Shown one piece after another: positions 15,203-59,793 of a stretch of 64,000 bases of DNA. The notes below the pieces were generated by a model. It did not search any database and was not told where the DNA came from. It saw nothing but the letters and a program-made list of their open reading frames with translations. The position numbers and the translations under genes are program-made. Source of the stretch: an uncultured bacterium (GTDB taxonomy: Bacteria; Omnitrophota; Omnitrophia; Omnitrophales; Abzuiibacteriaceae); contig CAYLXA010000002.1 of the NCBI GenBank assembly GCA_964387845.1, positions 64,001-128,000 of the forward strand, given 5' to 3'. Position 1 is the stretch's first letter, and each line of letters begins with the position of its first letter.

Positions 15203-16495
15203 ATGAAACTATCAATCATAGGATCGGGGCATGTGGGGTTGGTTACCGGAGCTTGTTTTGCCGAGCTTGGGCACCGTGTTATTTGTGTGGATTCTGATCC
15301 AAAAAAGATCAAATTGCTGAAACAGGGCGGTTGCCCGATTTTTGAACCCGAACTTCATGAGTTGGTCAAACGCAATGTTGCACAGGGGCGCCTGTCATTT
15401 ACGGGTGAAATTCATACGGCTGTCAAAGAAACAGAAATTCTATTCATCTGCGTCGGAACGCCGCCGCTTGAAGATGGCGGTACGGATTTATCATCTGTAG
15501 TTGCAGTCGCAAAAGCGATTGCGAAAAGCATGAAATCCTACAGGCTGATTGTGGAAAAAAGCACAGTGCCCGTTGAAACCGGCGAAGAGGTGAAGCGCAC
15601 CATTCGGCAGTATAAGGCAAAGGGCGTATCCTTTGATGTCGCATCAAACCCCGAATTTTTAAGGGAAGGAACCGCGGTACGGGATTTTTTGGAACCGGAC
15701 AGGATTGTGGTGGGGGTTGAAAGTAAGCGTGCCGAAAAAATGTTGCGCGAACTTTACCGTCAATTTCAGGCGCCGCTTATTGTTACGGATATTAAAAGCG
15801 CCGAAATCATTAAACACGCATCAAACTCATTCTTATCGATGAAAATTTCCTTTATCAATTTAATTGCCCGGCTTTGCGATAAGGTGGGCGCTAATGTCGC
15901 GGAAGTTGCTGAAGGAATGGGCTCAGATCCACGGATACGAAGAAATTTCCTGAATGCCGGAATTGGATTTGGCGGTTTTTGTTTCCCGAAGGATTTATCG
16001 GCCTTTATTCATATTGCAGAAAAAAACGGTGTTGATTTTGGGTTGCTCCGTGAAGTTTTGGAGATTAACCAAACTCAGAAAGATTATTTTGTATCGCTGG
16101 TCAAAAAAGCACTTAAAAATTTGGCCAAAAAGCGGCTGGCGGTCTTGGGGCTCTCCTTCAAACCTGACACGGATGATATGCGGTTTGCGCCTTCCTTAGA
16201 TATTATTCCAGAGCTTCAGAAATTAGGTGCTTCTATTTGCGCATACGATCCGGTCGCCATGCCCGAATCGAAAGAGATTTTCAAAGGAATTTCATTTGCC
16301 AAAACTGCCTACGAAGCGTGTGATAAGGCGGATGCGGTTTTGATCTTGACCGAATGGCGGGAATTTCAAGAGATTGATTTAAATCAAATTAAAAAGCGCT
16401 TGCGGAGCGCTGTGATGATTGACGGGCGGAATATTTATGATCCGGCGGTTATGAAGAAGAACGGCTTTAAGTATTTCGGGATCGGAAGACGCTGA
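15203..16495 (+). CDS. ugd: UDP-glucose 6-dehydrogenase
   Basis: 'IIGSGHVGLVTGACFAELGH' Rossmann fold. Catalytic 'GFGGFCFPKD'. Confidence 0.9.
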   Translation: MKLSIIGSGHVGLVTGACFAELGHRVICVDSDPKKIKLLKQGGCPIFEPELHELVKRNVAQGRLSFTGEIHTAVKETEILFICVGTPPLEDGGTDLSSVVAVAKAIAKSMKSYRLIVEKSTVPVETGEEVKRTIRQYKAKGVSFDVASNPEFLREGTAVRDFLEPDRIVVGVESKRAEKMLRELYRQFQAPLIVTDIKSAEIIKHASNSFLSMKISFINLIARLCDKVGANVAEVAEGMGSDPRIRRNFLNAGIGFGGFCFPKDLSAFIHIAEKNGVDFGLLREVLEINQTQKDYFVSLVKKALKNLAKKRLAVLGLSFKPDTDDMRFAPSLDIIPELQKLGASICAYDPVAMPESKEIFKGISFAKTAYEACDKADAVLILTEWREFQEIDLNQIKKRLRSAVMIDGRNIYDPAVMKKNGFKYFGIGRR

Positions 16496-16506
16496 TTCGT
16501 GATGAG

Positions 16507-17496
16507 TTGTTATTTATGAAAAGACTTTTGGTGACAGGCGGATGCGGATTCATCGGCTCGAATTTTATCCGTCACGTATTGGCAAATAGACCTGATTGCT
16601 TGATCACAAATCTTGATTTACTGACTTATGCTGGAAATCTTCAGAATTTAAGCGGAATTGATCAACACCCTAACTATAAATTTATTCAGGGTGATATTGC
16701 TGATGAAGCGCTTGCCGGCATGCTTATGAAAAGCGCGGATGCCGTTGTTCATTTTGCGGCCGAAAGCCACGTGGATCGTTCGATTGCTTCGTCACACGAT
16801 TTTATTCGAACCAACGTGATCGGGACCCAGGTCTTATTGGATGCCGCAAGGGAAGCGGGCCGAATTGAAAAGTTCATTCATTTTTCGACCGATGAGGTTT
16901 ACGGTTGCGCTGAACAAGGTGCTTTTCGAGAAGATGGCCTGGTCAATCCAACCAGCCCCTACGCGGCGTCCAAGGCAAGTTCAGACTTGCTTGCGATGTC
17001 GTACTACAAGACGCACAAGCTTCCGGTGATTGTCATGCGTGCATCGAACAATTACGGGCCTTATCAGTATCCGGAAAAAGTAATTCCGCTTTTTGTGACT
17101 AATTTAATCGAGAAAAAAAAGGTTCCGCTGTATTCTCGCGGGGAGAATGTCCGGGAATGGATGTATGTTGAGGATACTTGCCGGGCTGTTTCGTTTATTT
17201 TAGACAACGGACAGGCGGGTAATATTTATAATGTCGGGTCCGGCGTCGAGATCAGCAATATCACATTGGTGAACACGATTTTAAAAGCCTTTGGACTGGA
17301 TGAGGGCTGGATTTCATATGTAAAAGACAGGCCCGCACACGACATTCGCTATAGATTGAATTCAAGTAAAATCTCTATGCTTGGGTTCCAAATTTCAAGC
17401 AAATTTGATGAAAGATTGCAATATACAATAGATTGGTACCGCCAAAATGAGGCTTGGTGGAAACCGCTTAAAAACAATCAATATACGGTGAAGTGA
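16507..17496 (+). CDS. rfbB: dTDP-glucose 4,6-dehydratase
   Basis: 'LLVTGGCGFIGSNFIRHVL…DLLTYAGNLQNL' and a YxxxK motif. RmlB family. Confidence 0.85.
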   Translation: MLFMKRLLVTGGCGFIGSNFIRHVLANRPDCLITNLDLLTYAGNLQNLSGIDQHPNYKFIQGDIADEALAGMLMKSADAVVHFAAESHVDRSIASSHDFIRTNVIGTQVLLDAAREAGRIEKFIHFSTDEVYGCAEQGAFREDGLVNPTSPYAASKASSDLLAMSYYKTHKLPVIVMRASNNYGPYQYPEKVIPLFVTNLIEKKKVPLYSRGENVREWMYVEDTCRAVSFILDNGQAGNIYNVGSGVEISNITLVNTILKAFGLDEGWISYVKDRPAHDIRYRLNSSKISMLGFQISSKFDERLQYTIDWYRQNEAWWKPLKNNQYTVK

Positions 17497-17497
17497 C

Positions 17498-18394
17498 ATG
17501 TCTTTCAAAATATTGGTAACAGGCGCACGCGGGATGCTTGGAAGCGATTTGGTGGCCCTGCTCAGCAAGCACTACTCGGTTTATGGCCTCACGCGAAAAC
17601 AAGATGATCGGCCCACGTTTGCGGTTTGTGATATTACCGACCGCGCGGATACGATTAAAGCAATCGAGCGAATCAATCCGAAAGTCGTTATTCATGCAGC
17701 GGCGTGGGCGGATGTAGACGCTTGTGAAATTAACCGCGCAAAAGCAATGAAGGTTAATTTTGAGGGAACCAAAAATGTTGTGGATGGCTGCCGGCATGTA
17801 AAGGGGCTGCTTATTTACATCAGCACCGACTTCGTGTTCAGCGGCAATCAGAAAGACGCTTACAAAGAAACCAACATGACGCATCCGGTCAATGTTTACG
17901 GAGAATCGAAATTGCTTGGAGAATTTTACACACGATCTCAAAGTCTTGATTATTGGATCGTGCGAACATCGTGGCTGTTTGGTAAGAATGGCAATAATTT
18001 CATGTCGAAGATATTGGAAAAGGCAAAATCCGGCGAACGGCTCAATGTTGTTCATGACCAAAAAGGTTGCCCGACTTACACCAAAGATCTTGCTAAAGCG
18101 ATTTTACGTATGATTGACCGCCGCTTTGAATCCGAAAAACAACCCATGCTGAATGGGATTTACCACGTCTGTAATCGGGAACCCGCAACACGGTATGAAG
18201 TAGCTTTAGAAATTGTGGGCCGCAAAGGGCTCAAAGACGTCAAAGTTGATCCTGTGGGATCAGATGAAGTTAAAACCCTGGCTGCTCGGCCGAAGAATTC
18301 AACGCTCGATATGAGTAAATTTGAGAAATCGTTTGATTTTGCCATGCGGTCATGGAAAGACGCGTTGGTTGATTATATAAAGGAATTGAATTGA
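17498..18394 (+). CDS. rfbD: dTDP-4-dehydrorhamnose reductase
   Basis: 'ILVTGARGMLGSDL' and 'RTSWLFGKNGNNFMSKILEKAKSGERLNVVHDQKGCPTY', typical of RmlD. Confidence 0.8.
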   Translation: MSFKILVTGARGMLGSDLVALLSKHYSVYGLTRKQDDRPTFAVCDITDRADTIKAIERINPKVVIHAAAWADVDACEINRAKAMKVNFEGTKNVVDGCRHVKGLLIYISTDFVFSGNQKDAYKETNMTHPVNVYGESKLLGEFYTRSQSLDYWIVRTSWLFGKNGNNFMSKILEKAKSGERLNVVHDQKGCPTYTKDLAKAILRMIDRRFESEKQPMLNGIYHVCNREPATRYEVALEIVGRKGLKDVKVDPVGSDEVKTLAARPKNSTLDMSKFEKSFDFAMRSWKDALVDYIKELN

Positions 18395-18395
18395 G

Positions 18396-19727
18396 ATGTC
18401 ACCGAAGCGTAAATTGCCAAACCTAGTGAAGAACTTAACAAAACGTATTCAAACCCGGCAAATTAGTGTTGCCGTGATCGGTCTTGGGTATGTCGGGTTG
18501 CCGCTTGCGGTTCACTTTGCGGAACGCAAGGTCAAAGTATTTGGTATTGATTTAGATGCAAAAAAAATTGCCGCTCTGAATAAAGGCGGTTCATATATTC
18601 AAGATGTATCTGCGGCCAAAGTTCAGCGTGCGGTGCGTCAGAATCGCTTAAAAGCCACTAGCGATTATCAAGTTCTTAAAAAGGCGGACGCAGTTATTAT
18701 TTGTGTGCCGACCCCGCTCAATCGAGCCAAAGATCCCGATTTGTCGTTTATCATCAAAGCAACCGACGAAGTTGTTAAACACCTCCACAAGGGCCAAATC
18801 ATTATCCTGGAGAGCACCACTTATCCGGGCACAACCGATGAAGTGATCTTGCCAAAGCTGGAAGCGAGCGGTCTTAAAGCAGGAAAGGACTTTTTTCTTT
18901 GTTTTTCGCCGGAGCGAATTGATCCCGGCCGTAAAGATTTGCCGATATCCCTGATTCCAAAAGTGGTCGGCGGTATCAGTAAGAACTGCACAAAACTCGG
19001 AAGCTTGCTTTACGGCGTTGTGTTTGAGAAAGTGGTGCCGGTGTCATCCGCGCGGACAGCTGAAATGGCCAAGCTGCTTGAAAACACGTTCCGCATTGTT
19101 AATATCGGCATGATCAATGAACTGGCGACGATTGCGGGCGCGCTTGGTATCGATATTTGGGAAGTGATCGAAGCTGCCAAAACGAAACCCTTCGGTTTTA
19201 TGCCGTTTTATCCCGGCCCCGGCGTTGGCGGACACTGCATCGGGATCGATCCCATATATTTATCGTGGAAAGCGAAAACGCACGGGTTTAACATCAAATT
19301 TATCGATCTGGCACGTGACGTAAATGCGCACATGCCGCATTATGTGGTTGAAAAAACTCAAGAGCTTTTACTGCGTAATACAAAAAAATCAATCAATCAA
19401 ATGAGAATTTTAATCTCCGGAATTACTTACAAGCGCGATGTTGTGGATACCAGAGAATCGCCCGCGCTTGAGGTTATTGAGGAGCTTGCTCGTCTGGGCA
19501 TTAAGGTTTCTTACCATGATCCGTTTGTTCCAAAACTTAGATACGAAAGCATTTCTTTAAAATCAGTTTCGCTTACGCCAAAAATTTTGAAAAGACAGGA
19601 CTTGGTATTGATTCTAACCGATCATTCTAAAATTGATTACAAGCTCATCGCAAAAAATTCAAAATTGGTTTTTGATACGCGCAATGTATTCAAAAATATG
19701 AAAATGGAGCATATCGTTAAAATTTGA
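18396..19727 (+). CDS. UDP-N-acetyl-D-hexosamine 6-dehydrogenase (WecC/WbpA/Cap5O family)
   Basis: Nucleotide-sugar dehydrogenase N-terminus 'VAVIGLGYVGLPLAVHFAE', a central catalytic Cys region 'GGHCIGIDP' and a C-terminal UDP-binding domain. Confidence 0.8.
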   Translation: MSPKRKLPNLVKNLTKRIQTRQISVAVIGLGYVGLPLAVHFAERKVKVFGIDLDAKKIAALNKGGSYIQDVSAAKVQRAVRQNRLKATSDYQVLKKADAVIICVPTPLNRAKDPDLSFIIKATDEVVKHLHKGQIIILESTTYPGTTDEVILPKLEASGLKAGKDFFLCFSPERIDPGRKDLPISLIPKVVGGISKNCTKLGSLLYGVVFEKVVPVSSARTAEMAKLLENTFRIVNIGMINELATIAGALGIDIWEVIEAAKTKPFGFMPFYPGPGVGGHCIGIDPIYLSWKAKTHGFNIKFIDLARDVNAHMPHYVVEKTQELLLRNTKKSINQMRILISGITYKRDVVDTRESPALEVIEELARLGIKVSYHDPFVPKLRYESISLKSVSLTPKILKRQDLVLILTDHSKIDYKLIAKNSKLVFDTRNVFKNMKMEHIVKI

Positions 19728-19743
19728 AAATTGGGGGAAGTGT

Positions 19744-20703
19744 ATGAAACGTTGTTTGGTAACGGGCGGTGCAGGATTTATCGGATCAAATATCGTAGAA
19801 ACTCTTGTAAAAAAGGGTTTTCGGGTCCGCGTTCTGGATAATTTCTCGACTGGCTTCAAGCAAAATCTGAAATTTCTAGAATCAAAAATAGAAATTCACA
19901 CAGGCGATATCCGAAATTTGAGGCATGCGCAGCGCGCAGCCAAGGGAATGGATTACGTGATCCATACGGCAGCGAATCGTGCAGTTTTGAGATCGGTGGA
20001 TGACCCGCTAGAGACCAATGAAGCCAATGTCAACGGAACGCTTAATATCTTAATTGCAGCGCGTGACGCCAAGGTGAAAAGAGTCGTCTATTCTTCATCG
20101 TCATCGGTTTACGGTGAAACAAATCAATTTCCGCTCAATGAAACCGCCAAGCCGAACCCGCAATCGCCCTATGCTGCACAGAAACTGATGGGTGAATATT
20201 ATTGCCGGCTGTTTTATCAATTGTACGGGCTCGAGACCGTTTCGCTCCGCTATTTTAATGTATTCGGACCCAGGCAAAATCCGGAGTCAAAATATTCAGC
20301 CGTGATTCCGATTTTCATCGACCAGCTTTTAAAAGGCGAACGTCCGGTTTTGCATTGGGATGGAAAACAATCTCGTGATTTTTCTTATGTCGATAATGTC
20401 GTGTACGGCAATTTGTGCGCGATGCATGCAGGCAAACAAGCTGCCGGGCAAGTTTATAATATTGCCTGTCATGAAGAGTACAGCGTGCTGGATATTTTTA
20501 ATGAACTGAAAAGAATTCTTCGAAAACCTTCTGTTCAGCCCATTTTCAAACCGAAGCGGGCGGGGGATGTTAGGCGGACATTTGCCGATATTCGAAAAGC
20601 AAAGCGAGAGTTAGGCTTTCGAGTTCAGACGAGATTTCGCGCAGGCCTGCAAAAAACCGTCGATTGGTTTCTCGAGAGCAAAGTTCTAGAGCGCCGCTCA
20701 TGA
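19744..20703 (+). CDS. NAD-dependent UDP-GlcNAc/GlcNAcA 4-epimerase (WbpP/TviC-like, extended SDR)
   Basis: '[18 protein letters not shown]…[13 protein letters not shown]' resembles WbpP. It sits next to the WbpA-like dehydrogenase, as in the TviB/TviC pair. Confidence 0.7.
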
Positions 20704-21635
20704 AAACCGTGGTTGTCACCGGCGGGGCCGGCTTTATCGGCTCACACCTTTCTGAACATTTTCTTCAAAACGGTTTTAAGGTCATCTGCCTTGATAATTT
20801 ATTGACCGGATCAGCTCAAAATATCAAGACTTTTAAGAATCATCCTCATTATGAATTCGTCGAGCATAATATCTGCGATTACATCGATGTGCCCGGATCT
20901 GTCGACTATGTTCTCCATTTTGCATCACCGGCAAGTCCGATTGATTATTTAAAATTACCGATTCAAACTTTAAAAGTCGGATCGCTGGGCACGCACAACG
21001 CGCTCGGCTTTGCGAAAGCAAAAAAAGCGGTTTTTTTACTGGCGTCAACCTCTGAAGTATACGGAGACCCCTTGGTCCATCCGCAGCCGGAAGATTATTG
21101 GGGGAATGTGAATCCCATCGGTCCGCGCGGAGTTTACGATGAAGCAAAGCGTTTTGCGGAAGCCATTACGCTGGCATATCATCGGTCACACGAAATGGAT
21201 GTCAAGATCGTCCGTATTTTTAATACCTATGGGCCCCGGATGCGCAAAGAAGACGGGCGGGCGATTCCGGCATTCATCAGCCAGGCGTTAAATGGTGAAG
21301 CGGTGACCGTGTTCGGCGACGGGTCCCAAACCCGCAGTTTTTGTTACATCAGCGATCTTGTTGACGGAATTGTGAAGCTTTTGCTGTCGCCTCAGCACGG
21401 CCCTATCAATATCGGAAACCCGAATGAGATGTCGCTTTTGGATTTAGCAAAGGAAATCATCCGCCTTACCAAAAGCAAAAGCGAGATCAAATTCATGAAA
21501 CTTCCGCAGGATGATCCCAAGGTGCGCCAGCCGGATATTACAAAGGCAAAGACATTGTTGAAGTGGGGGCCAAAAGTACAGCTCGAGGACGGCCTTCGAA
21601 AAACAATTGAGTATTTTAAATTGGTAGGCAAATGA
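20700..21635 (+). CDS. UDP-glucuronate decarboxylase (UDP-xylose synthase)
   Basis: '[13 protein letters not shown]…CLDNLLTG' and '[29 protein letters not shown]' match the UXS signature region. ATG 20700 overlaps the upstream stop (ATGA); the ORF track starts at 20664. Confidence 0.7.
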
Positions 21636-24772: not shown

Positions 24773-24822
24773 AGCGCATTATAGCTGCCATGCCTTAAAG
24801 TGCAATTCATAAGGCGTTGATT

Positions 24823-24850
24823 GACAATTTGAGGAATTGCTTTAAAATGG
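24823..24850 (+). promoter_or_regulatory. candidate sigma-70 promoter in the divergent intergenic region (TTGACA, 16-nt spacer, TAAAAT)
   Basis: AT-rich 125-nt gap between divergent glycosyltransferase genes. TTGACA at 24823 is followed after 16 nt by TAAAAT. Oriented towards the gene at 24898. Confidence 0.3.
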
Positions 24851-34272: not shown

Positions 34273-34291
34273 GGGGATTTAAGAGCAGATA

Positions 34292-41659: not shown

Positions 41660-41661
41660 TT

Positions 41662-42495: not shown

Positions 42496-42499
42496 AGCT

Positions 42500-52350: not shown

Positions 52351-53397
52351 ATGGAAATTTGGAAAAAAACGCTCGTATCAAAGTTAACGCCGATCAAAGA
52401 AGTGATTAAAGTAATCGATGCGGGATCTTTGCAAATTGCTTTGGTCGTTGATGAAAATTATAAGCTTTTAGGAACCGTTACCGACGGTGATGTTCGCCGC
52501 GGCATTTTAAAAAACATATCCATGAATGATCCCGTGCACAAAATTATGCAGTCGAAACCAGTCATTGCAAAACTGGGCGAGGAGCGAGAAAAAGTTTTGG
52601 TACGCATGAAAGAAAAGCAGATCAATCAAATTCCATATCTTGATCAAGCGGGGCGTGTCAAAGGACTTGAAGTTATCCATGATTTGCTTAACGGATCCGC
52701 AAAAGATAATCCTGTATTATTGATGGTGGGCGGCCTGGGAAGCCGGCTGCAACCAATCACAAACGATCTTCCGAAGCCGCTCATTAAAGTCGGTGGCAAG
52801 CCGATTTTGGAACGCATTTTAGAGGATTTGATTGAATACGGCTTCCGGAAGTTTTACTTTTCCGTATTTTATAAATCCGAAATGATTCAAGAATATTTCG
52901 GTGATGGCAGCCGCTGGGATGTGGAAATTCGGTATATTCGCGAGCAAAAGAGAATGGGCACTGCCGGCGCCTTGAGCCTTCTTCCTGAAAAGCCTTCGGC
53001 ACCAATTTTAATTATGAACGGAGATTTGGTTACAAAAGTTAATTTTCAGCATCTTTTTGATTTTCATCAGCAGCAATCCGGCGATTTGACCGTGTGCGTC
53101 CGTGAGTATGATTTTCAAGTGCCTTACGGCGTTATTAAAATGAACGGTCATCTTATTTCAGGCATCGACGAAAAACCGGTGCATAAGTTTTTTGTAAACG
53201 CCGGAATTTATTTGATGGAGCCTGCGCTTTTGCGAAACATATCCAAAAACCGTTTTTTAGACATGACCCAGCTGATTGAAAAATTGAAGTCCAAAAAGAA
53301 AATTCTCGCATTTCCGATCCGTGAATATTGGCTCGATATCGGCCGGCACGACGACTTAAAGCGTGCAACCGAAGAAATCGAGTCGTTGTTTAAATAA
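52351..53397 (+). CDS. CBS-pair plus sugar-phosphate nucleotidyltransferase (PtmE-like, GDP-HexNAc forming candidate)
   Basis: Two N-terminal CBS motifs. Then 'LMVGGLGSRLQPITNDLPKPLIKVGGKPILERIL', the G-x-G-T/S-R-L NTase signature. Confidence 0.8.
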   Translation: MEIWKKTLVSKLTPIKEVIKVIDAGSLQIALVVDENYKLLGTVTDGDVRRGILKNISMNDPVHKIMQSKPVIAKLGEEREKVLVRMKEKQINQIPYLDQAGRVKGLEVIHDLLNGSAKDNPVLLMVGGLGSRLQPITNDLPKPLIKVGGKPILERILEDLIEYGFRKFYFSVFYKSEMIQEYFGDGSRWDVEIRYIREQKRMGTAGALSLLPEKPSAPILIMNGDLVTKVNFQHLFDFHQQQSGDLTVCVREYDFQVPYGVIKMNGHLISGIDEKPVHKFFVNAGIYLMEPALLRNISKNRFLDMTQLIEKLKSKKKILAFPIREYWLDIGRHDDLKRATEEIESLFK

Positions 53398-53420
53398 GCC
53401 GTCGTGGCTCCTCAAGATTT

Positions 53421-54224
53421 ATGAACTCATCAACCGTACCCCAAATCAGCATTTTACTTTGTGTTCACAACGGTGAACGAACAGTTGAGCAAGCGATCAA
53501 CAGTCTTCTTGCTCAGACGTTTAAGGATTTTGAGCTCATCGTGATCAATGATGGGTCAACCGATTCTACTCTCGCTCAGTTAGAGAAATTTCAAGACCCA
53601 AGAATCTTCATTCAAAGCATCCCCCGGCGCGGACTCACGAAAGCGCTCAATGTGGGGCTTGCTCAATGCCGCGGTGAATTCATTGCGCGCGTCGATGCTG
53701 ATGATGTTGCGCTGCCTAATCGGCTTGAGCGCCAGGCTGTATTCTTAAATAAGCATCGAAGCGTGGGCGTGATTGGGACCGGGTATGAAATTTTAACTGA
53801 AAACGGTTCGCGAAAACGGGCGACCGTCCCTCTCCTGGAAACCGATTATGAAATCAAGCAAGCTCTTCCGAAATTTAACCCGTTTCACCACGGGTCAGTC
53901 ATGATTCGCCGGCAAATTTTGATCGAAGAGGGCGGCTATGATGAAAATTTTAAACTGGCTCAGGATTATGAACTGTGGCTCAGGCTATCAGGACGTTGCC
54001 AAATGGCTAATATCGGGGAAGTTCTGATGGTGCGCAGAGAGGGCCGAGAAACACTCAAAAAAGAACGCGAACAAAATTGGTACGGAATCAAGGCCAGATT
54101 GAAAGCAATTCAGCGAGGGAATTTAAGTTTTTGGAACGTGATCTACATTCTTCGCCCATTTTTAGTTGTGCTAACACCGGACTGGATAAAATCCGTTATT
54201 CGAAAATTGATCCGAAATGCCTAA
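53421..54224 (+). CDS. glycosyltransferase family 2
   Basis: 'ISILLCVHNGERTVEQAINSLLAQTFKDFELIVINDGSTDST' and a 'DADD' DxD motif. Confidence 0.8.
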   Translation: MNSSTVPQISILLCVHNGERTVEQAINSLLAQTFKDFELIVINDGSTDSTLAQLEKFQDPRIFIQSIPRRGLTKALNVGLAQCRGEFIARVDADDVALPNRLERQAVFLNKHRSVGVIGTGYEILTENGSRKRATVPLLETDYEIKQALPKFNPFHHGSVMIRRQILIEEGGYDENFKLAQDYELWLRLSGRCQMANIGEVLMVRREGRETLKKEREQNWYGIKARLKAIQRGNLSFWNVIYILRPFLVVLTPDWIKSVIRKLIRNA

Positions 54225-56412
54225 AATTAAAATCCTATTCATTGATTCTCGCGGAGACTTTGGCGGGGGATCGAACCATCTGCTGTCCATTTTGGAATCT
54301 CTGGATCCGAATAAATTCGACGCATTTGTTGCAGCGCCGTCCGGTCAAGGCAATTCGGAGAAATACCGGAAACTTTGCCGTGCATTCTGTGATATTCCAT
54401 TCCGGAAATTTTCACTCGATGCTTTTCGTGATTTAGTTGAGTTTGCCGAAACCCACCAAGTTCATTTTGTCCATTCCCACGGCCGCGGGGCTGGCATCTA
54501 TAGCCGCTTTATTTTTTGGAAAACCAAAATTCCGGCCATTCATACTTTTCACGGAATTTCTTATGGATTCTTCGGAGCATTCATCGACCGCTTTTTAAAA
54601 AAATGGACAGCCAGGTTTATCCATGTTTCTGATTCTGAGCGGGAAGCCGCGGCTAATCTTGGGGTTTCCGATCCGCGCAGGGCAGTGACCATCTACAACG
54701 GGATCGACTACAGGTGTTTTCAATCGGGTAAAAGCAGAAAAGATGCAAAAGCATCGCTTGGGTTAAGTTTAGATCATTTTGTCATTGGATGCGTGGCTAG
54801 ATTTGATGCTTGCAAGCGCCACCAAGATTTAATCGAAGCCTTGGCTTTATTGACTACTCGCTATCCCAATCTGCGTTTAGTGCTGGCTGGTGACGGCGAA
54901 ACGCGTATAAAGATCGAGCAATTGGCAAATGAATGTGGTGTCTTGGGTAAAGTTTTATTTTTGGGAGAACAAAAAAATCCTCAAATCGTTTATGCGGCAT
55001 CTGATGTATTCGTGCTCGCATCCGAATTTGAGGGCCTTCCTTTAGCGCCTCTGGAGGCGATGGCAGCGGGTTGTGCGGTTGTGTTATCGAATGTGCGCGG
55101 CAACCGGGATGTGGTTCAGGATGAAAAAGACGGCCTGCTATTCGAAGCAAAAAATCCGGAAGCGCTTGCTGCTGCCATTGCGCGGTTAATCGGCAGCCAG
55201 GAGCTGCAGTCAAGACTTATCGAATCGGCCCACAGGACCGTGATTGAGCGATTTTCCATCGATCGCATGCGTGCACAAATTTATGCTTTTTATGAAACCC
55301 TTGTTCCGGTTCCGAAATTCCGGAAAGCCGCGTTGACGCACGACTGGCTTTTTCATATGCGCGGAGGGGAAAAAGTTTTGGAGTCCATCGGAGAACTTTT
55401 TCCGCTTGCGCCCATCTACACGCTTTTTCTCGATCAGAAAAAACTGTCTGAATCCATTAACCGGCACCAGATAATTGCCTCGTGGCTGAACCAGATCCCT
55501 CTCATTGCCGGGTTTTACCGGTATCTACTCCCCCTATTTCCGTTGGTGATGAAGCAATTTGATATCAAAGATCATCTTTTAATCGTTAGCAGCAATCACT
55601 GCGCTGCTAAATCTATCTCGAAGGGGAGGCGCGCGCTACACATTTGCTATTGTCACGCACCAATGCGCTACGCATGGGGTTTTGAATCAGAATATTTTGG
55701 CCGGTTTCCGTTTTTTCTCCGCAGTCTGATCAGGACAGTTCTGAGCTGGCTTCGTTATCGCGATCTCGGATCTAATCCCGGCGTCGATCACTTTATTGCA
55801 AACTCTCAGAATATTAGAAAACGCATCAACCAATACTATGCAAGAGAAGCTGATGTGATTTACCCGCCGATTCAGAAGCGGTTGAAACAGTGTGAGCCTG
55901 CCCAATCGAGCGAGTACTTGATTGTCTCGGCGCTCGTTCCTTACAAACGGATCGATATAGCCGTGCAGGCATTCAACGAATTACAGCTTCCGCTAACAAT
56001 CATCGGGTCCGGCCCCTTATTGCCATCTCTGCAAAAGCAAGCGAAATCGAATATCCGGTTTTTGGGTTGGCAGCCTGATCATGAAGTCGCAAAATATTAT
56101 GCCAGCTGCAAAGCGCTCATTTTTCCGACCGAAGAAGACTTTGGCATGGTTCCGGTTGAGGCAATGATGTACGGAAAGCCGGTGATTGCGTTTGCGTGCG
56201 GCGGCGCGCTTGAAACCGTGATTCCCGGAAAAACAGGACTGCTTTTTGATGCACAAACACCGGAAGCGCTAACCAACGCCGTAAAACAGTTTTCCATTAA
56301 TCAGTTTGACTCTAAAGCCATTACAGCCTATGCTCAGAAATTTAGCGCCGAGCACTTTAATGATGCCGTTATAAAACTTTTGTCGGAATTTACCAATGGT
56401 CAAGCAAACTAA
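54217..56412 (+). CDS. tandem di-domain glycosyltransferase (two GT4 modules fused)
   Basis: Module 1 has 'ASEFEGLPLAPLEAMAAGCAVVLSNVRGNRDVVQDEKDGLLF'. Module 2 starts at 'ALTHDWLFHMRGGEKV' and ends with 'PTEEDFGMVPVEAMMYGKPVIAFACGGALETVIPGKTGLLF'. Confidence 0.75.
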   Translation: MPKIKILFIDSRGDFGGGSNHLLSILESLDPNKFDAFVAAPSGQGNSEKYRKLCRAFCDIPFRKFSLDAFRDLVEFAETHQVHFVHSHGRGAGIYSRFIFWKTKIPAIHTFHGISYGFFGAFIDRFLKKWTARFIHVSDSEREAAANLGVSDPRRAVTIYNGIDYRCFQSGKSRKDAKASLGLSLDHFVIGCVARFDACKRHQDLIEALALLTTRYPNLRLVLAGDGETRIKIEQLANECGVLGKVLFLGEQKNPQIVYAASDVFVLASEFEGLPLAPLEAMAAGCAVVLSNVRGNRDVVQDEKDGLLFEAKNPEALAAAIARLIGSQELQSRLIESAHRTVIERFSIDRMRAQIYAFYETLVPVPKFRKAALTHDWLFHMRGGEKVLESIGELFPLAPIYTLFLDQKKLSESINRHQIIASWLNQIPLIAGFYRYLLPLFPLVMKQFDIKDHLLIVSSNHCAAKSISKGRRALHICYCHAPMRYAWGFESEYFGRFPFFLRSLIRTVLSWLRYRDLGSNPGVDHFIANSQNIRKRINQYYAREADVIYPPIQKRLKQCEPAQSSEYLIVSALVPYKRIDIAVQAFNELQLPLTIIGSGPLLPSLQKQAKSNIRFLGWQPDHEVAKYYASCKALIFPTEEDFGMVPVEAMMYGKPVIAFACGGALETVIPGKTGLLFDAQTPEALTNAVKQFSINQFDSKAITAYAQKFSAEHFNDAVIKLLSEFTNGQAN

Positions 56413-57616
56413 AGCAGTTCTTATTTTGGATCAAATAGTACATATTGCGGTAGCGCTTGCTATCATGTCTTATATTTTTTCACGTGGGCTCTTGCTTGTC
56501 GGTATTTATACAGCGCTGATTGCTTGGCTGCTTGGCCGAATCTTAAAGCGAAAGACCATGCTTCCGCACACAGAGTGGAATATTTATCTGGGAATTATTT
56601 TGACTGCACTCATAGCTTCGGTGATCGTAAACGGAAATTGGTACGAAGGAGCGCGGGGCCTGCACAAGTGGCTAAGAGCTCTATTGCTATTTCTATTTGC
56701 CGCTGATTACCTGAGAGATAAGGAAAGCAAAAAAAACGTTTTACTGGCCCTTGGCACCGCGTTTTTGGTTGCTGTACTAGACGGGATTGCGCAGTATTTT
56801 ACTGGCAGAGACTGGATCCGCGGATTTGAGCTTGGGTATGCCGATTTTGTACCGCGCGTGACTTCATCGTTTGGTTATTTTGGCATGTTCGCTTCGTTCC
56901 TGGTCATGGCAGGGCCTATTGTATTTTGGTTTTTTTGGAAAAATTCTTCAAAACTAATCCGTTACGGACTTCTAGGAATTTCAATGTCTTTGGGTCTTCT
57001 AAATCTTTATCTGACTCGGGCGCGCGGTGCGTGGATTTCGCTGGCAGCAATGTTCGTTGCTTATTTGGTAATTACAAAGCGATGGGTCATGATTACGGTG
57101 CTGGCAGTAGCAACCGCTGCATTTTTGTTTTTACTGCCTCGCGACATTGTGCTGCACAGTCCAAAGGAAGTGGGAATCGACAAAACAATTCACCACCGCA
57201 TAATCTTATCCAACGAAGCCCTGACGATTTGGAGAGCGAACCCGCTTTTTGGATGCGGGCTTAATACGTATGTGCAGAATGTGGAAAAATATAATTTACC
57301 AAATTCACATGAGGTTAGAAATTATTACGCTCACAATGGCTACCTTCAATATGGCGCAGAGACCGGTATTGTTGGTTTTTTAGCGCTCGTATTCTTTTTA
57401 TTTCGGTATGGGATGGTGGCTATCTATAAATGCATTACTGAGCGCGCCGCTAGATTTTCTTTGAATCACGCATTATTAGTTTCAAACGGCAGTTTCCTCT
57501 TTTACATGTTTTTTGATACAATTTTTCACAATTTACAGCCATTTTTACTTTTTTGGTTTTTGCTTGGTTGGCATGCGTCTGTATTGCGGTATTCCCATGA
57601 AAACATTACGTCATAG
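56396..57616 (+). CDS. Wzy_C-family membrane protein (O-antigen ligase WaaL / O-oligosaccharyltransferase PglL / polymerase family)
   Basis: About 10 TM segments with a large periplasmic loop carrying 'YAHNGYLQYGAETGIVG', which is the conserved H-N-x-x-L / 'gaetG' region of WaaL/PglL. Confidence 0.7.
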   Translation: MVKQTKAVLILDQIVHIAVALAIMSYIFSRGLLLVGIYTALIAWLLGRILKRKTMLPHTEWNIYLGIILTALIASVIVNGNWYEGARGLHKWLRALLLFLFAADYLRDKESKKNVLLALGTAFLVAVLDGIAQYFTGRDWIRGFELGYADFVPRVTSSFGYFGMFASFLVMAGPIVFWFFWKNSSKLIRYGLLGISMSLGLLNLYLTRARGAWISLAAMFVAYLVITKRWVMITVLAVATAAFLFLLPRDIVLHSPKEVGIDKTIHHRIILSNEALTIWRANPLFGCGLNTYVQNVEKYNLPNSHEVRNYYAHNGYLQYGAETGIVGFLALVFFLFRYGMVAIYKCITERAARFSLNHALLVSNGSFLFYMFFDTIFHNLQPFLLFWFLLGWHASVLRYSHENITS

Positions 57617-59024
57617 ACGGAAGCGGAAAGGCGACTTTTTATCTTCTGTTATATTCCTAGCGTCCGATATTGCATCAATCTCAGCCGCGTTTGTTGTAGC
57701 TTATTTGGCGCGGTTCGACTGGCTCCAAAATTTCTTTCAAAAAGAGCCGCCCGACTTTAACCGGTACTTGTATGTGCTACCGGTAGTGATTGCCATCTTT
57801 ATCGCCACATTCCGGCAAAAGCAAATTTACGTTTTTGATACGCTTCGGAGGCGCCTCGATGAGATCGGTATTCTTTTTGCTTCGGTCGTTATTGCCGGCA
57901 TCCTGCTGATGGCACTCACGTTCTTGTACCGTGATTTTTCATATTCAAGAACATTTTTTGCCCTTCATTTAATCTTGTCATTTGTATTAATTTGTTTTTT
58001 TAGACATTTAGCCTATTGGCTGGATGGTGCAGTTAGATTAGCGACCGGAACCCGGATTCGGATTCTGGTAATGGGCGCTAACCGCAGCGCGCGTCAAATT
58101 ATTCGCCGAATTAACAAGAGCTACCGGAATCGATATGAGGTTGTCGGTGTATTGACAGGAGGGAAATCTCACGGTGAAAAGCATTTTGAACAGGCGCCGA
58201 TTGTCGGAAGTCTTGAGGATGTCTTTAAAAAAATGCCGCAGCTAAACGCCGATGAAGTGATTTTGACGGTTTCCGATTTTCCGGATGAAAAACTAACCGA
58301 GCTTTTCCTGAAATGCGAGAATGAAATGGTTTCATTTCTTAAAATTCCAGATTTATTCGGCATTTTCACAAGCGGAGTGGATATTCATTATATTGACAAC
58401 GTCCCTTTGATCGGGATTAAAAAATCGCCGCTCGATAAATTTGTGAACCGGCTTTTTAAGAGGTCTTTTGACCTTGCCACATCCCTGGTCGGCGTTGTTT
58501 TGCTCTCACCGGTTTATGTGGTGATTGCCATATTGGTAAAATGCACGGACGGCGGGCCGATTTTGTATCGCCAGGACCGGACCGGGATGGACGGGCGGAG
58601 TTTTTTTATGTATAAATTCAGAACCATGCGCGTAGATGCCGAATCGAAGTCAGGGCCCGTATGGGCAGTGGCTGACGATCAGCGGGTGACATCGGTCGGG
58701 AAATTTTTACGCCGCTTTAATCTCGATGAATTGCCGCAGTTTTTTAACGTTTTGCGCGGAGAAATGAGTATCGTGGGGCCCCGTCCGGAGCGCCCTCACT
58801 TTGTAGGGAAATTCCGCGACCAAGTGCCTCGATACATGGCGCGTCACAAAATCAAATCCGGAATCACAGGATGGGCACAAGTAAACGGCTTTCGCGGTAA
58901 CACGTCTATCGCGGAGCGCACCAAATACGACCTCTATTATTATGAAAATTGGTCGTTATTCTTAGACATTAAAATCATTCTCCTAACTTTGTTTTCACCG
59001 AAAGGTTTTCAAAACGCGTATTGA
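57597..59024 (+). CDS. undecaprenyl-phosphate sugar phosphotransferase (WbaP/PglC-large type initiating transferase)
   Basis: N-terminal TM bundle, a central CoA-binding-like domain and C-terminal '[11 protein letters not shown]…[25 protein letters not shown]' bacterial sugar transferase domain. ATG 57597; the ORF track starts at 57513. Confidence 0.85.
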
Positions 59025-59025
59025 T

Positions 59026-59793
59026 ATGTCCAAAACCCCGATCACCATTGCTGTCATGGCAAAAAACGAAGAAAAAAGATTGCCGGCATGCCTCGAGTCT
59101 GTGCGCTGGGCAGATGAAATTCTGATTCTGGATGACGAAAGTACGGACCGTACCGTTCAAATTGCAGAATCTTTCGGTGCTCGCGTGATCAAGCGAAAAT
59201 TGGATGTTGAGGGCCGTCACCGCAATTTTCTATATGCACACGCCAAAAACGAATGGGTCTTGAGTTTGGATGCCGATGAGCACGTAACGCCCGAGCTCGC
59301 TAAAGAAATTGACGAAGTAATCAAGAAAAACGACCCGGGATTCGCCGGTTATTCCATGCCGATGCAGATTTTTATCGGAACCCGATGGATCCGAGGAGCG
59401 GGTTATTACCCATCCGCGCGCTTAAAAATGTTTCGCCGCGATAAATTCAAATACGAGGAAACCGGTGTTCATCCGCGCGTTTTTCTCGATGGGAAGTGTG
59501 GACGCTTAAAAGGAGAGCTGCTTCATTATTCTTTCCGGGATTTCTCGCATTTTATTGCCAAATTCAACCGGGAAACCGATTTGGAAGCCGTGAAATGGCT
59601 TGAAGATAAGCGTAAAATGAGTTTTGGGCTTGCGTTTTACAAGTCGACCGACCGTTTTTTCCGCGCATTCATTACAAAAAAGGGTTACCGCGATGGTTTT
59701 CTCGGATTTATTCTGTCTTGTTTTTCATCCTGGTATCAACTTGTGACTTATGCCAAATACTGGTTCGCAAAGCAAAACCAAGCGCCCCAATAA
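59026..59793 (+). CDS. glycosyltransferase family 2 (WaaE/KdtX-like LPS glycosyltransferase)
   Basis: 'ITIAVMAKNEEKRLPACLESVRWADEILILDDESTDRT'. Confidence 0.8.
   Translation: MSKTPITIAVMAKNEEKRLPACLESVRWADEILILDDESTDRTVQIAESFGARVIKRKLDVEGRHRNFLYAHAKNEWVLSLDADEHVTPELAKEIDEVIKKNDPGFAGYSMPMQIFIGTRWIRGAGYYPSARLKMFRRDKFKYEETGVHPRVFLDGKCGRLKGELLHYSFRDFSHFIAKFNRETDLEAVKWLEDKRKMSFGLAFYKSTDRFFRAFITKKGYRDGFLGFILSCFSSWYQLVTYAKYWFAKQNQAPQ

Follow-up and report, generated by a model that had tools for sequence, protein, structure and literature searches.

The gene cluster at positions 15203-59793 of the analysed stretch of DNA (64 kb, here called the window) raises the question of how an uncultured diderm bacterium would move a lipid-linked glycan across the inner membrane and pass it to an acceptor when the window lacks the familiar export genes. 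Searches of every ORF of at least 200 aa in the window against Pfam and NCBIfam gave no match to the Wzx, Wzz, Wza, Wzc or Wzm/Wzt families, which bears out the absence of Wzx, Wza, Wzc and Wzz that had been read from the letters of the DNA. We lean, by a small margin, towards an en bloc pathway in which this operon-like chromosomal locus would direct the synthesis of a lipid-linked heteroglycan, its flipping by an ABC exporter and its ligation by a WaaL-like enzyme. The most likely product is a complex cell-envelope heteroglycan, an LPS-linked O-chain or outer-core-type oligosaccharide, forming a surface chain that is most likely capped with a legionaminic-acid-type sugar. The assignments on which this reading is built are collected in Table 1.

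Table 1. Genes of the cluster and its two immediate neighbours, with positions in the window and the main evidence (L-numbers denote relatives).
Feature	Position	Strand	Evidence
LptD-like outer-membrane LPS-assembly protein	12775..15114	+	Pfam LptD_N E 2.2e-6; NCBIfam NF002997 78.7 bits, far under cutoff
UDP-glucose 6-dehydrogenase (Ugd)	15203..16495	+	All three UDPG_MGDP_dh domains; TIGR03026 472.7 bits, above cutoff
dTDP-glucose 4,6-dehydratase (RfbB)	16507..17496	+	TIGR01181 410 bits vs cutoff 365.1
dTDP-4-dehydrorhamnose reductase (RmlD)	17498..18394	+	TIGR01214 273 bits vs cutoff 224
UDP-HexNAc (GlcNAc/ManNAc) dehydrogenase, WbpA/TviB/WecC-like	18396..19727	+	TIGR03026 452 bits; best specific models WecC, TviB, both under cutoff
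UDP-HexNAc(A) 4-epimerase-like short-chain dehydrogenase (TviC/WbpP-like)	19744..20703	+	Best NCBIfam model TviC 238 bits, under cutoff
UDP-glucuronate decarboxylase (UXS)	20700..21635	+	Matches human UXS1 structures by sequence (348 bits, E 5e-103)
Rmd-like GDP-4-keto-6-deoxyhexose reductase	21632..22570	+	PDB 2pk3 (GDP-6-deoxy-D-lyxo-4-hexulose reductase) E 1.5e-55
GT2a glycosyltransferase	22563..23609	+	Pfam Glycos_transf_2 E 2.4e-19; 54% identity in L012
GT4 glycosyltransferase	23558..24772	-	Pfam Glycos_transf_1 E 1.8e-39; sole minus-strand gene of cluster
GT4b glycosyltransferase	24898..26028	+	Pfam E 2.9e-45; 66% identity in L012
SAM-dependent methyltransferase 1	26032..26805	+	Pfam Methyltransf_31, _11, _25; 58-59% identity in L009, L012
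GT4c glycosyltransferase	26805..28112	+	Pfam; 50-55% identity in relatives
GT2b, probable polyprenyl-phosphate sugar synthase	28109..28849	+	Pfam GT2 E 2.4e-24; best NCBIfam models AglJ, PpgS, dolichyl-P-hexose transferase, all under cutoff
GT-C-like membrane glycosyltransferase, 548 aa	28853..30499	+	About 14 TM segments and C-terminal soluble domain; assigned via family members and profile
GT4d glycosyltransferase	30496..31626	+	Pfam; 47-54% identity in L002, L009, L012; conserved partner of GT-C-like gene
SGNH/GDSL hydrolase or acyl-transfer protein 1, membrane-anchored	31610..32989	+	Pfam Lipase_GDSL_2 39.7 bits vs cutoff 32.9
SGNH/GDSL protein 2, frameshifted at C5 run (33971-33975)	32976..34274	+	Lipase-profile score before and after one-C deletion
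GT-C (PMT_2/ArnT-like) membrane glycosyltransferase	34292..35884	+	About 11 TM segments; Pfam PMT_2 E 1.3e-5, 25.9 bits vs cutoff 26.1
Methyltransferase 2	35906..36589	+	Pfam Methyltransf_11
650-aa protein with GT-B-like C-terminal domain, putative nonulosonic acid transferase	36608..38560	+	NCBIfam TIGR04396 E 6e-14, BFO_1060 family E 1.2e-9, both under cutoff
CMP-nonulosonic acid synthetase (LegF/PseF-like)	38565..39281	+	Pfam CTP_transf_3 E 3.3e-19; PseF model 131 bits, under cutoff
WbuZ/HisF-like cyclase subunit (acetamidino formation)	39278..40150	+	TIGR03572 274.4 bits, slightly below cutoff 299.7
HisH/WbuY-like glutaminase subunit	40143..40817	+	TIGR01855 209 bits vs cutoff 105.4
TylF-type O-methyltransferase (methyltransferase 3)	40826..41659	+	Pfam TylF E 1.6e-22; GC 0.39
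2OG-Fe(II) oxygenase	41662..42495	+	Pfam 2OG-FeII_Oxy_3 E 3.1e-19; GC 0.37, cluster minimum
WbuX N-acetyl sugar amidotransferase	42500..43723	+	TIGR03573 347.4 bits vs cutoff 203.2
Fused TMD-NBD type IV ABC exporter, putative flippase for lipid-linked glycan	43748..45547	+	Pfam ABC_tran E 3.4e-32 and weak ABC_membrane match
GT4e glycosyltransferase	45551..46693	+	Pfam Glycos_transf_1 E 6.7e-14
Methyltransferase 4	46690..47355	+	Pfam Methyltransf_11; 37-41% identity in relatives
LegB, NDP-GlcNAc 4,6-dehydratase	47369..48379	+	TIGR04180 521.9 bits vs cutoff 475
LegC aminotransferase	48382..49557	+	TIGR04181 524 bits vs cutoff 420
NeuC/LegG (hydrolysing 2-epimerase)-NeuB/LegI (synthase) fusion	49554..51737	+	TIGR03568 434 bits, TIGR03569 460.6 bits, both above cutoff; Pfam Epimerase_2, NeuB, SAF
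NeuD/PglD-family N-acetyltransferase (LegH role)	51747..52340	+	TIGR03570 181.3 bits vs cutoff 160.8
CBS and nucleotidyltransferase protein (PtmE-like sugar-1-phosphate nucleotidylyltransferase)	52351..53397	+	Pfam CBS, NTP_transferase; no equivalog NCBIfam model met
GT2c	53421..54224	+	Pfam GT2 E 8.5e-34; opens conserved 3' module; 52-60% identity, syntenic in L005, L006, L007
GT4-GT4 double glycosyltransferase	54217..56412	+	Two Glycos_transf_1 stretches; 51-64% identity, fused in 3/3 relatives L005, L006, L007
Wzy_C-domain protein with WaaL fold, putative glycan ligase	56396..57616	+	Pfam Wzy_C 74.3 bits vs cutoff 31.7
Polyprenyl-phosphate hexose-1-phosphate transferase (PHPT, WcaJ-type), initiator	57597..59024	+	TIGR03023 443 bits vs cutoff 410.75; Pfam Bac_transf E 1.2e-70; 65-80% identity in relatives
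GT2d	59026..59793	+	Pfam GT2 E 2.9e-19; 80-92% identity in relatives, most conserved gene of locus
GmhB heptose bisphosphate phosphatase	59750..60343	+	NF006506 166.8 bits vs cutoff 178; downstream neighbour

The genes at the 5' end are predicted by homology to supply UDP-GlcA, UDP-Xyl, UDP-HexNAcA, a dTDP-6-deoxyhexose and a GDP-6-deoxyhexose. All the precursor routes listed in the sequence-only reading were recovered, the dTDP route again with neither an RmlA (rfbA) nor an RmlC (rfbC) domain in the window and the Rmd-like reductase with no Gmd in the window. The proposed CMP-nonulosonic acid route is represented by a full LegB/C/H/G/I/F and PtmE set, predicted by homology to yield CMP-legionaminic acid. 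Judged by sequence, the legionaminic acid set also includes the WbuX/Y/Z acetamidino module, which had been overlooked and which would convert an N-acetyl into an acetamidino group; additional changes to the sugar may come from the TylF methyltransferase and the 2OG oxygenase. The BFO_1060 family, to which the putative nonulosonic acid transferase shows similarity, is named after a homologue of the Pse/Leg transferase of T. forsythia (PMC5420450), and in the relative L009 the homologue of this protein forms a fusion with a CMP-sugar synthetase domain.

Initiation would consist of the transfer of a hexose-1-phosphate to undecaprenyl phosphate by the PHPT; an initiator had been expected here and is present, scoring best as WcaJ-type and not as the WbaP that had been named. 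The GT2 and GT4 classes were likewise found again, at four GT2 and six GT4 proteins (seven GT4 domains) where about 12 had been counted, and so were the four methyltransferases, by Pfam. Some 10 cytoplasmic GT2/GT4 domains and the putative nonulosonic acid transferase would elongate the chain, and the methyltransferases would modify it. Both SGNH proteins are also there, the second one frameshifted. As written its ORF ends at 34016 and matches half of the lipase profile at 26.2 bits, whereas removal of one C gives a 431-aa protein that aligns with positions 1-175 of the 178 in the profile at 50.8 bits, the DDIH motif included. The 275-nt "gap" at 34017-34291 was rejected as intergenic DNA, being the out-of-frame 3' end of this gene. 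The SGNH proteins would deal with O-acyl groups in the periplasm.

A Wzx, Wzz or Wza protein hidden behind the two "GT-C-like" labels would have turned the locus into a conventional one. Neither Pfam nor NCBIfam matches the protein at 28853-30499 directly; in its very small family, with 70 representatives among 1.84 billion, 5 of 33 members match PMT_2 and 5 match TMEM260-like, these being distant members, and the family profile matches TMEM260 (PDB 9rql, E 0.0047). Given these GT-C family matches (PMT_2, TMEM260) and no resemblance to Wzx, Wzz or Wza, that identity was rejected for both proteins, and the GT-C label stands. The two enzymes would attach branch sugars in the periplasm, at least one of them using a polyprenyl-phosphate sugar; for the 28853-30499 enzyme the adjacent GT2b is the probable source of this donor, as gene order and sequence suggest. 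GT2b is 75-85% identical in relatives and belongs to a widespread family (at least 598 metagenome matches); of 49 unrelated metagenome loci with a GT2b homologue, 12 have a gene for a protein of at least seven TM segments directly after it.

The context suggests that the fused ABC exporter is the flippase for the lipid-linked glycan, moving the completed chain over the inner membrane in place of Wzx. It had been described as MsbA/PglK-like. One fused exporter is indeed present, with no specific likeness to either: the NCBIfam scores (HepA 345, MsbA 331, PglK 244 bits) are all far under cutoff, and the membrane domain searched alone gives weak matches to Sav1866 and MsbA (E ~1e-4) and none to PglK. 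PglK, Wzk and MsbA are by sequence not its orthologues, and its membrane domain is very divergent. A single relative carries an orthologue (49% identity) within its homologous cluster; orthologues above 37% identity occur in only two sequences besides the exporter itself. The exporter may fall within the variable portion of the cluster, since orthologues are rare and two of the three relatives with the Wzy_C gene have none on their contigs.

The Wzy_C protein predicted for the cluster was confirmed, and its AF2 model (pLDDT 91) has WaaL (7tpg; Foldseek E 6.9e-7, TM 0.64) as top and sole strong structural match. Residues R210, R268 and H313, an Arg/Arg/His triad, are invariant across 29 homologues. 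The model thus points to a WaaL-like glycan ligase. A repeat-unit polymerase would be the other reading of a Wzy_C domain, but a ligase or oligosaccharyltransferase fits better, because the orthologue is retained in place in three relatives with differing upstream sugar genes. Such a ligase would pass the glycan to an acceptor, most likely lipid A-core.

Beyond the enzyme families we infer every step from context. The pathway as proposed could work without a polymerase, a chain-length regulator and an outer-membrane exporter, and is of a type already known from Helicobacter and Campylobacter. The WecA-Wzk-WaaL route of H. pylori does without Wzx, Wzy and Wzz, its Wzk being a PglK homologue (PMC2841628). 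Flipping by an ABC exporter is what the proposed route shares with Wzk and with PglK of C. jejuni, but the exporter found here is an orthologue of neither. An ABC-flippase-dependent lipid-linked oligosaccharide pathway, not a classical Wzx/Wzy/Wzz or Wza/Wzc system, had been the earlier suggestion as well, and the families absent from the window, the GT-C-like pair and the WaaL fold all agree with it. Other parts of the genome could, however, encode a Wzx or a second ligase: the absence of Wzx covers the window and the ~44 kb visible of the exporter-bearing homologous cluster of one relative, and is not genome-wide. An LPS context is indicated by the LptD-like gene directly upstream, gmhB overlapping the 3' end and hldD within the window; set against this, the LptD-like protein is strongly divergent in sequence and the 64 kb window contains no GT9 heptosyltransferase or Kdo gene.

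The cluster measures 44.6 kb and has a coding share of about 99.7%, with 38 of its 39 genes on the plus strand. A near-unbroken plus-strand run of about 40 genes had been reported, and this holds except for one real GT4 gene, whose counterpart in L012 is likewise inverted (52% identity). With start codons refined, 16 of the 37 same-strand junctions overlap and 21 have gaps of at most 24 nt; the overlaps are of 4 nt (seven, six of them ATGA and one TTGA), 8 nt (three) or other lengths (six), in agreement with the ATGA and 8-nt start/stop overlaps first noticed. As for the flanks, gmhB adjoins the 3' end, overlapping GT2d by 44 nt, as it does identically in relatives, but hldD (4529) lies ~10 kb upstream. 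Between hldD and the cluster are tRNA-Thr, rpoN, accD, an ABC ATPase gene, two GGDEF genes, a transaldolase/FSA gene and the LptD-like gene, which is the true upstream neighbour and stands outside the set of glycan genes.

In relatives at 46-92% protein identity the 3' and 5' modules are held in common and the middle alone varies; the 3' module GT2-GT4GT4-Wzy_C-PHPT-GT2-gmhB is conserved in L005, L006 and L007, which have different upstream sugar genes. To call it an "island", mobile or private, goes too far, since gene order is largely shared with relatives and the locus contains no mobility genes. Co-directionality is no special mark of the cluster either but common to the whole window, in which the plus strand carries 53 of the 55 listed genes. 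The GC skew, suggested as a check of the edges, is positive almost everywhere in the window, with a single short negative dip at 41-45 kb. A PriA-like ORF cut short by the 3' edge of the window is also on the plus strand.

From its gene content, the glycan cluster appears to encode a system of a known kind, namely an ABC-flippase-dependent pathway in which a lipid-linked glycan with legionaminic acid chemistry would be transferred en bloc. The sequence-only reading had proposed an ABC-flippase-dependent pathway lacking Wzx, Wza and Wzz; its observation is accurate and its interpretation sound. Among the ORFs of at least 200 aa in the window no match was found to Wzx (MOP families PF01943, PF13440 and PF14667; E up to 1e-3, and up to E 1 for the unassigned membrane proteins), nor to Wzm, and Wzz, GNVR, Poly_export and the tyrosine kinase family (Wza/Wzc) gave no match within the window. 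The two large membrane proteins that had been called GT-C-like are indeed GT-C-like, and neither is a Wzx, Wzz or Wza.

The map of the region was built from an ORF listing and family scans. The proposed run of about 40 co-directional, overlapping genes corresponds to 39 genes, 38 of which lie on the plus strand. With starts refined, 16 of the 37 same-strand junctions overlap (seven by 4 nt, three by 8 nt), whereas at the remaining 21 the gap is at most 24 nt; the coding density of the cluster is about 99.7%. Only rpoN and one GT4 gene lie on the minus strand anywhere in the window, and the GC skew is positive over most of it, so that co-directionality belongs to the whole region and not to the glycan cluster. 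Counts of sigma-70-like promoters and of terminators between 15 and 35 kb were not above those in shuffled sequence. The best sigma-70-like match in this interval (11 of 12 positions) is located in the 125-nt spacer behind the inverted GT4 gene, just upstream of a plus-strand GT4 gene.

Features of the window in 5' to 3' order, with the identity between the proteins of the relatives and those of the window
Feature	Position	Strand	Identity	Remark
argS (3' end), miaA, hflX, Nudix gene		+		upstream housekeeping genes, in this order
Deoxyhypusine-synthase homologue	3411-4532	+		Pfam DS, E 1.2e-87; directly 5' of hldD, 4-nt overlap
hldD		+		housekeeping
tRNA-Thr (CGT)	5488-5562			wedged, with virtually no spacer, between the hldD stop and the 3' end of convergent rpoN
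rpoN		-		
accD, MalK-like ATPase gene		+		in this order
Two GGDEF genes	9208-12095	+		tandem
Transaldolase/FSA gene		+		
LptD-like gene	12775-15114	+		5' of the glycan genes
Glycan genes	15203-59793			
Inverted GT4 gene	23558-24772	-		
Best sigma-70-like match, 15-35 kb	24821-24848			
GT2b	28109-28849	+		246 aa
548-aa GT-C-like protein	28853-30499	+		
Second SGNH gene	32976-34274	+		frameshifted
C5 run of the second SGNH gene	33971-33975			frameshift; ORF stop at 34016
Gap before the second GT-C-like gene	34017-34291			275 nt
Second GT-C-like protein	34292-35884	+		
TylF/2OG-Fe(II) oxygenase/WbuX sub-block	40826-43723	+		
ABC exporter	43748-45547	+		fused TMD-NBD
NeuC-NeuB fusion	49554-51737	+		
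GT2c		+	52-60%	
GT4-GT4 fusion	54217-56412	+	51-64%	
Wzy_C protein	56396-57616	+	46-50%	
PHPT	57597-59024	+	65-80%	
GT2d (last GT2)	59026-59793	+	80-92%	
gmhB	59750-60343	+		3' of the glycan genes
GT28/MGDG-synthase-like gene	60340-61455	+		behind gmhB
Uracil-DNA glycosylase (UDG) gene		+	62-76%	
priA		+		

The precursor routes named in the sequence-only reading all stand. Ugd was confirmed by family models, and the UDP-xylose synthase is clear from its match to human UXS1 (E 5e-103). A UDP-HexNAc dehydrogenase adjoins a TviC/WbpP-like epimerase, and RfbB and RmlD both score above curated cutoffs, with no RmlA or RmlC in the window. The Rmd-like reductase matches structure 2pk3 (E 1.5e-55) and is not accompanied by a Gmd in the window. 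The remaining route, to a CMP-nonulosonic acid, is a legionaminic acid pathway. LegB (TIGR04180, 521.9 bits against a cutoff of 475), LegC (TIGR04181, 524 against 420) and a NeuD/PglD acetyltransferase in the role of LegH (TIGR03570, 181.3 against 160.8) are present, and NeuC and NeuB, equivalent to LegG and LegI, are joined in one protein (TIGR03568, 434 against 235.9; TIGR03569, 460.6 against 399.65). A CMP-sugar synthetase in the putative role of LegF contains the CTP_transf_3 domain and reaches 131 bits with the PseF model (cutoff 205.7), and a PtmE-like protein, which would supply the GDP-linked precursor, shows the CBS plus NTP_transferase architecture, with no equivalog model existing or being reached.

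Two groups of genes in this block had been overlooked. WbuX (347.4 bits, cutoff 203.2), a HisH-like protein (209, cutoff 105.4) and a WbuZ/HisF-like protein (274.4, slightly below the cutoff of 299.7) are encoded between the synthetase and the exporter; this set predicts an acetamidino derivative. The sub-block that encodes a TylF methyltransferase and a 2OG-Fe(II) oxygenase is the lowest in GC content (0.37-0.39), and its GC skew is locally negative. Taken together with wbuX, the sub-block has a GC content of 0.37-0.42, the lowest in the window, again with locally negative skew, which suggests a newer acquisition within the locus.

A 650-aa protein without PDB match, for which Pfam and NCBIfam gave weak, sub-cutoff matches, is putatively the nonulosonic acid transferase, since its homologue in L009, a locus of a relative on a metagenome contig, is fused to a CMP-sugar synthetase domain and since the protein itself weakly matches (37.7 bits, cutoff 200) the BFO_1060/Tanf_01245 family of Pse/Leg transferases of T. 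forsythia (PMC5420450). Several gene fusions occur in these loci. The window has NeuC-NeuB and GT4-GT4, and in relatives the putative nonulosonic acid transferase is joined to a CMP-sugar synthetase (894 aa and 903 aa; L009 18741-21425 and L007 1-977).

The system contains a full-length polyprenyl-phosphate initiating transferase of the PHPT family. It had been taken for WbaP; the WbaP score is lower, however, and the WcaJ equivalog model TIGR03023 is matched above its cutoff (443 bits against 410.75). The initiator is thus not of the WecA type. Only one glycan-linked ABC protein is present, a type IV half-transporter with TMD and NBD fused, and there is no separate Wzm/Wzt. Full-length matches of this exporter are carried by its ATPase domain, and its NCBIfam scores (HepA 345, MsbA 331 and PglK 244 bits) are all far under the cutoffs, which are 602 for the MsbA equivalog and 1000 for the PglK model NF050066. 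The membrane domain by itself retrieved only Sav1866, TM288 and MsbA (E about 1e-4), and no PglK among PDB matches at E up to 0.01. The label MsbA/PglK-like therefore holds for the architecture and fails for the sequence family: by sequence comparison, the exporter seems to be of the PglK/Wzk kind in build, yet to fall outside that family.

The candidate for the en bloc terminal transferase (WaaL or oligosaccharyltransferase) is the Wzy_C protein, which scores 74.3 bits with the Wzy_C model (cutoff 31.7) and gave nothing in a PDB sequence search. Its AlphaFold model (pLDDT 91, pTM 0.92) has the WaaL fold: in Foldseek the WaaL ligase 7tpg was the only strong PDB match (E 6.9e-7, TM 0.64), followed by FtsW at TM 0.46. 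R210, R268 and H313 are invariant in 29 homologues, and in spacing they resemble R215, R288 and H337, the essential residues of E. coli WaaL, to which they may correspond. The fold match, together with conservation of the protein despite differing sugar genes, favours a ligase over a polymerase, and the LPS context (the LptD-like gene and gmhB) is suggestive of lipid A-core as the acceptor.

In the 548-aa GT-C-like protein, about 14 hydrophobic segments are followed by a soluble domain that makes up the C-terminal 130 aa or so. Direct searches of Pfam, NCBIfam and PDB sequences returned nothing, and its placement is by way of distant homologues only. A full HMMER pass over 1.84 billion representatives found just 70 relatives; among the 33 that are full-length, PMT_2 was matched in five and a TMEM260-like domain in five, both being GT-C families, and the family profile matched the TMEM260 O-mannosyltransferase structure over the N-terminal 200 residues (E 0.0047). 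An AlphaFold model based on three eligible alignment sequences had a pLDDT of 52 and was left out of the fold search. The second GT-C-like protein scores 25.9 bits with PMT_2 (cutoff 26.1). Directly 5' of the 548-aa gene lies GT2b, whose best models are the polyprenyl-phosphate sugar synthases AglJ, PpgS and Dol-P-hexose transferase, and in 12 of 49 unrelated metagenome loci a GT2b homologue is directly followed by a large protein with at least seven TM segments. GT2b and the 548-aa protein would thus fit a pair of donor synthase and GT-C enzyme acting on the periplasmic side. Scanning metagenomes for GT2b gave at least 598 matches, the best 80 of which were kept and are 63-75% identical; the family is very widespread and highly conserved, and looks like a general pairing of polyprenyl-phosphate-sugar synthase with GT-C protein. 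The scan yielded a single true syntenic relative, L012. One further orphan polytopic protein (466 aa, about 10 TM segments, no Pfam match) is encoded within the cluster of L009 (7842-9242) and is possibly a GT-C protein or a polymerase.

Homologues of the Wzy_C protein occur on long contigs of other metagenomes. In all three contigs examined the order of the 3' module is the same: GT2, GT4-GT4 fusion, Wzy_C, PHPT, GT2, gmhB, GT28, UDG, priA, def and fmt. GT2d is better conserved in L005-L007 than the adjoining UDG and housekeeping genes, and its overlap with gmhB is 44 nt in the window and 41-50 nt in the relatives. At the other end, the 5' block of methyltransferase, GT4, GT2b, GT-C-like protein and GT4 was found again in L009, L002 and L012, the last of which also holds UXS, Rmd, GT2, inverted GT4 and GT4 in unchanged order. 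The middle of the locus varies among relatives in nonulosonic acid type, amidation genes, methyltransferases and extra glycosyltransferases. The cluster had been described as an island; a private or mobile island can be rejected, the 3' and 5' modules being kept in relatives and the window containing no integrase, no transposase and no tRNA next to the cluster (whole-window Rfam and tRNA scans found tRNA-Thr only). Judged from these comparisons, it is an envelope glycan locus shared across the lineage, conserved at both ends and variable in between.

The contig of one Wzy_C relative also carries an exporter orthologue (49% identical), placed within the homologous cluster, and no Wzx was found in about 44 kb of that cluster (L009 and L006). 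Other exporter matches are at most 37% identical and none is on the contigs of the other two relatives, so that the exporter may belong to the variable set. A search of genome contigs for the LptD-like protein gave a single, 42% identical fragment; an exact-sequence cluster look-up found eight of 10 window proteins in the collection, and the two named distant homologues are labelled Candidatus Omnitrophica.

With the enzyme families identified by homology, we infer the following order of steps. The glycan would be assembled on undecaprenyl phosphate, with PHPT acting first, extended by about 10 cytoplasmic GT2/GT4 domains and the nonulosonic acid transferase, and decorated by methyltransferases. 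The ABC exporter would then flip it across the inner membrane; in the periplasm the two GT-C-like enzymes would add sugars and the SGNH proteins would deal with O-acyl groups, after which the WaaL-fold protein would transfer the glycan en bloc to its acceptor. We favour lipid A-core in this last role, given the presence of the LptD-like gene, gmhB and hldD in the region and a transferase that is kept even where the sugar chemistry differs.

The same assembly and flipping could also feed general protein O-glycosylation, the Wzy_C protein then being a PglL/PilO-type O-oligosaccharyltransferase acting on S-layer, pilin or outer-membrane proteins, instead of or besides lipid A-core. The Wzy_C domain is common to WaaL and to O-oligosaccharyltransferases, and the Arg/Arg/His residues cannot separate them. 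Moreover, the number of glycosyltransferases in the absence of a polymerase points to a long glycan without repeats that ends in a modified nonulosonic acid, like the O-glycan of T. forsythia (PMC5420450), whose transferase family the 650-aa protein weakly resembles; and H. pylori WaaL, which is reported to serve adhesins as well as LPS (PMC9553153), keeps this reading alive. It is nevertheless on the unlikely side, though worth bearing in mind, as no PglL_A or Wzy_C_2 accessory Pfam domain was detected in the Wzy_C protein, WaaL is the only solved structure that its model matched strongly, the neighbours are LPS-related and the nearby genes include no candidate acceptor protein.

A conventional Wzx/Wzy pathway, with the Wzy_C protein as repeat-unit polymerase, Wzx, Wzz and the ligase encoded outside the window, and the ABC protein exporting something else or being MsbA, we regard as quite unlikely. 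Polymerases follow the structure of the repeat unit, whereas the Wzy_C orthologue is kept beside PHPT despite different sugar genes; about 12 glycosyl-transfer steps far exceed a typical repeat unit, Wzz and Wzc are absent nearby, and in both genomes with the exporter, nonulosonic acid genes flank it. Its proponents could point out that Wzy_C covers some polymerases too, that the absence of Wzx covers this window, that the MsbA score of the exporter about equals that of any glycan flippase model, and that no exporter orthologue was found with two of the three relatives. Finally, assembly might be LOS-style: the glycan would be built straight onto lipid A-core on the cytoplasmic side and the MsbA-like exporter would flip the product, leaving PHPT and the Wzy_C protein to a separate, smaller glycan. 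Campylobacter and Neisseria are known to sialylate LOS in the cytoplasm, the exporter has an MsbA-type architecture and the 3' PHPT/Wzy_C module is kept whatever the variable middle contains. This is very improbable all the same, given that the locus holds no core glycosyltransferase (GT9 or Kdo transferase), that the exporter stays well under the MsbA equivalog cutoff, and that tight overlapping genes join the nonulosonic acid block to the 3' module.

For ligation of an exporter-flipped glycan to lipid A-core, the direct precedent is the O-antigen pathway of H. pylori (WecA - Wzk - WaaL; Hug et al. 2010, PMC2841628), where, as proposed here, the complete glycan is made in the cytoplasm on a polyprenyl carrier before a fused TMD-NBD ABC protein flips it and WaaL ligates it, with no Wzx, Wzy or Wzz (here, neither Wzx nor Wzz in the window). 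It differs in having the PNPT WecA as initiator instead of a WcaJ-type PHPT and scattered instead of clustered genes; the exporter of the present locus is no Wzk/PglK orthologue, having a divergent membrane domain, and the locus has periplasmic GT-C enzymes and legionaminic acid chemistry in addition. The N-glycosylation locus of C. jejuni (PglC - PglK - PglB) is similarly compact and combines an initiator of the PHPT family with GT4 extenders and an ABC flippase that handles the lipid-linked oligosaccharide; Campylobacter is also the reference for the GDP-GlcNAc route to legionaminic acid (LegB, LegC and others). In place of the STT3/PglB oligosaccharyltransferase, however, the final transferase here has the Wzy_C/WaaL fold, and the predicted glycan has about twice the length and far greater variety.

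Three other systems share parts of the chemistry or of the machinery. O-glycosylation in T. forsythia (PMC5420450) has a complex, non-repeating glycan, a modified, acetamidino-type nonulosonic acid cap and methyltransferases in the locus. In the O-antigen locus of L. pneumophila serogroup 1, which specifies a 5-acetamidino-legionaminic acid polymer, legionaminic genes stand beside HisF/HisH-type and amidotransferase genes in an LPS context; that product is a homopolymer, described as exported by a Wzm/Wzt ABC-2 transporter, whereas many glycosyltransferases and a type IV exporter are found here. The Bacteroidota, in turn, are described as differing from the present locus in their use of a Wzx flippase and a different O-oligosaccharyltransferase. 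The heterocyst envelope genes of Anabaena (HepA, HepC) pair a fused ABC exporter with a PHPT in a polysaccharide locus; HepA is the best NCBIfam family of our exporter and the HepC model is also matched by the PHPT, but both scores are under the cutoffs (725 and 140), and taxon, glycan and cellular context are different.

The locus does not open a new class of system. If the proposed mechanism is right, a route in the style of Wzk/PglK, where an ABC exporter replaces Wzx and ligation is en bloc, would extend well outside the Campylobacterota in a PHPT-initiated form, and at least one relative shows the same architecture. Glycoengineers could find a use for so compact a gene set, fully clustered, for a glycan capped with legionaminic acid, and a very small orphan GT-C-like family paired with a polyprenyl-phosphate-sugar synthase is brought to notice. 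A bolder proposal, to which we give little credence, would make the exporter the founder of an unrecognised, highly divergent clade of type IV ABC flippases that works with a PHPT and a WaaL-fold transferase in a deep-branching uncultured lineage, possibly related to Omnitrophota, as the labels of the two distant homologues hint. The lineage-conserved locus would then specify a non-repeating glycan of about 12-14 sugars with a methylated and/or hydroxylated acetamidino-legionaminic cap, two orphan GT-C families would act in the periplasm, and one dual-use transferase would serve both LPS and surface proteins.

The two SGNH proteins show no significant similarity to each other and are not paralogues. 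The second SGNH gene is frameshifted at a run of five C residues, its catalytic DxxH block being encoded in the +1 frame up to the end of the gene. Removal of one C gives a protein of 431 aa that matches GDSL over its full length, at 50.8 bits as against 26.2 bits for the ORF as it stands; an assembly error, a pseudogene or phase variation could lie behind the frameshift. A regulatory element in the gap that follows can be dismissed, the gap being the shifted 3' end of this gene. A short way 5' of the LptD-like gene and the glycan locus, two genes in tandem encode GGDEF diguanylate cyclases with membrane anchors, one of which also has a GAF domain; they could tie the glycan locus to c-di-GMP regulation. 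On the other side, the GT28/MGDG-synthase-like gene is syntenic in all relatives and scores 204 bits, under the cutoff, with the diglucosyl-diacylglycerol synthase model, which hints at a glycolipid made beside the glycan locus.
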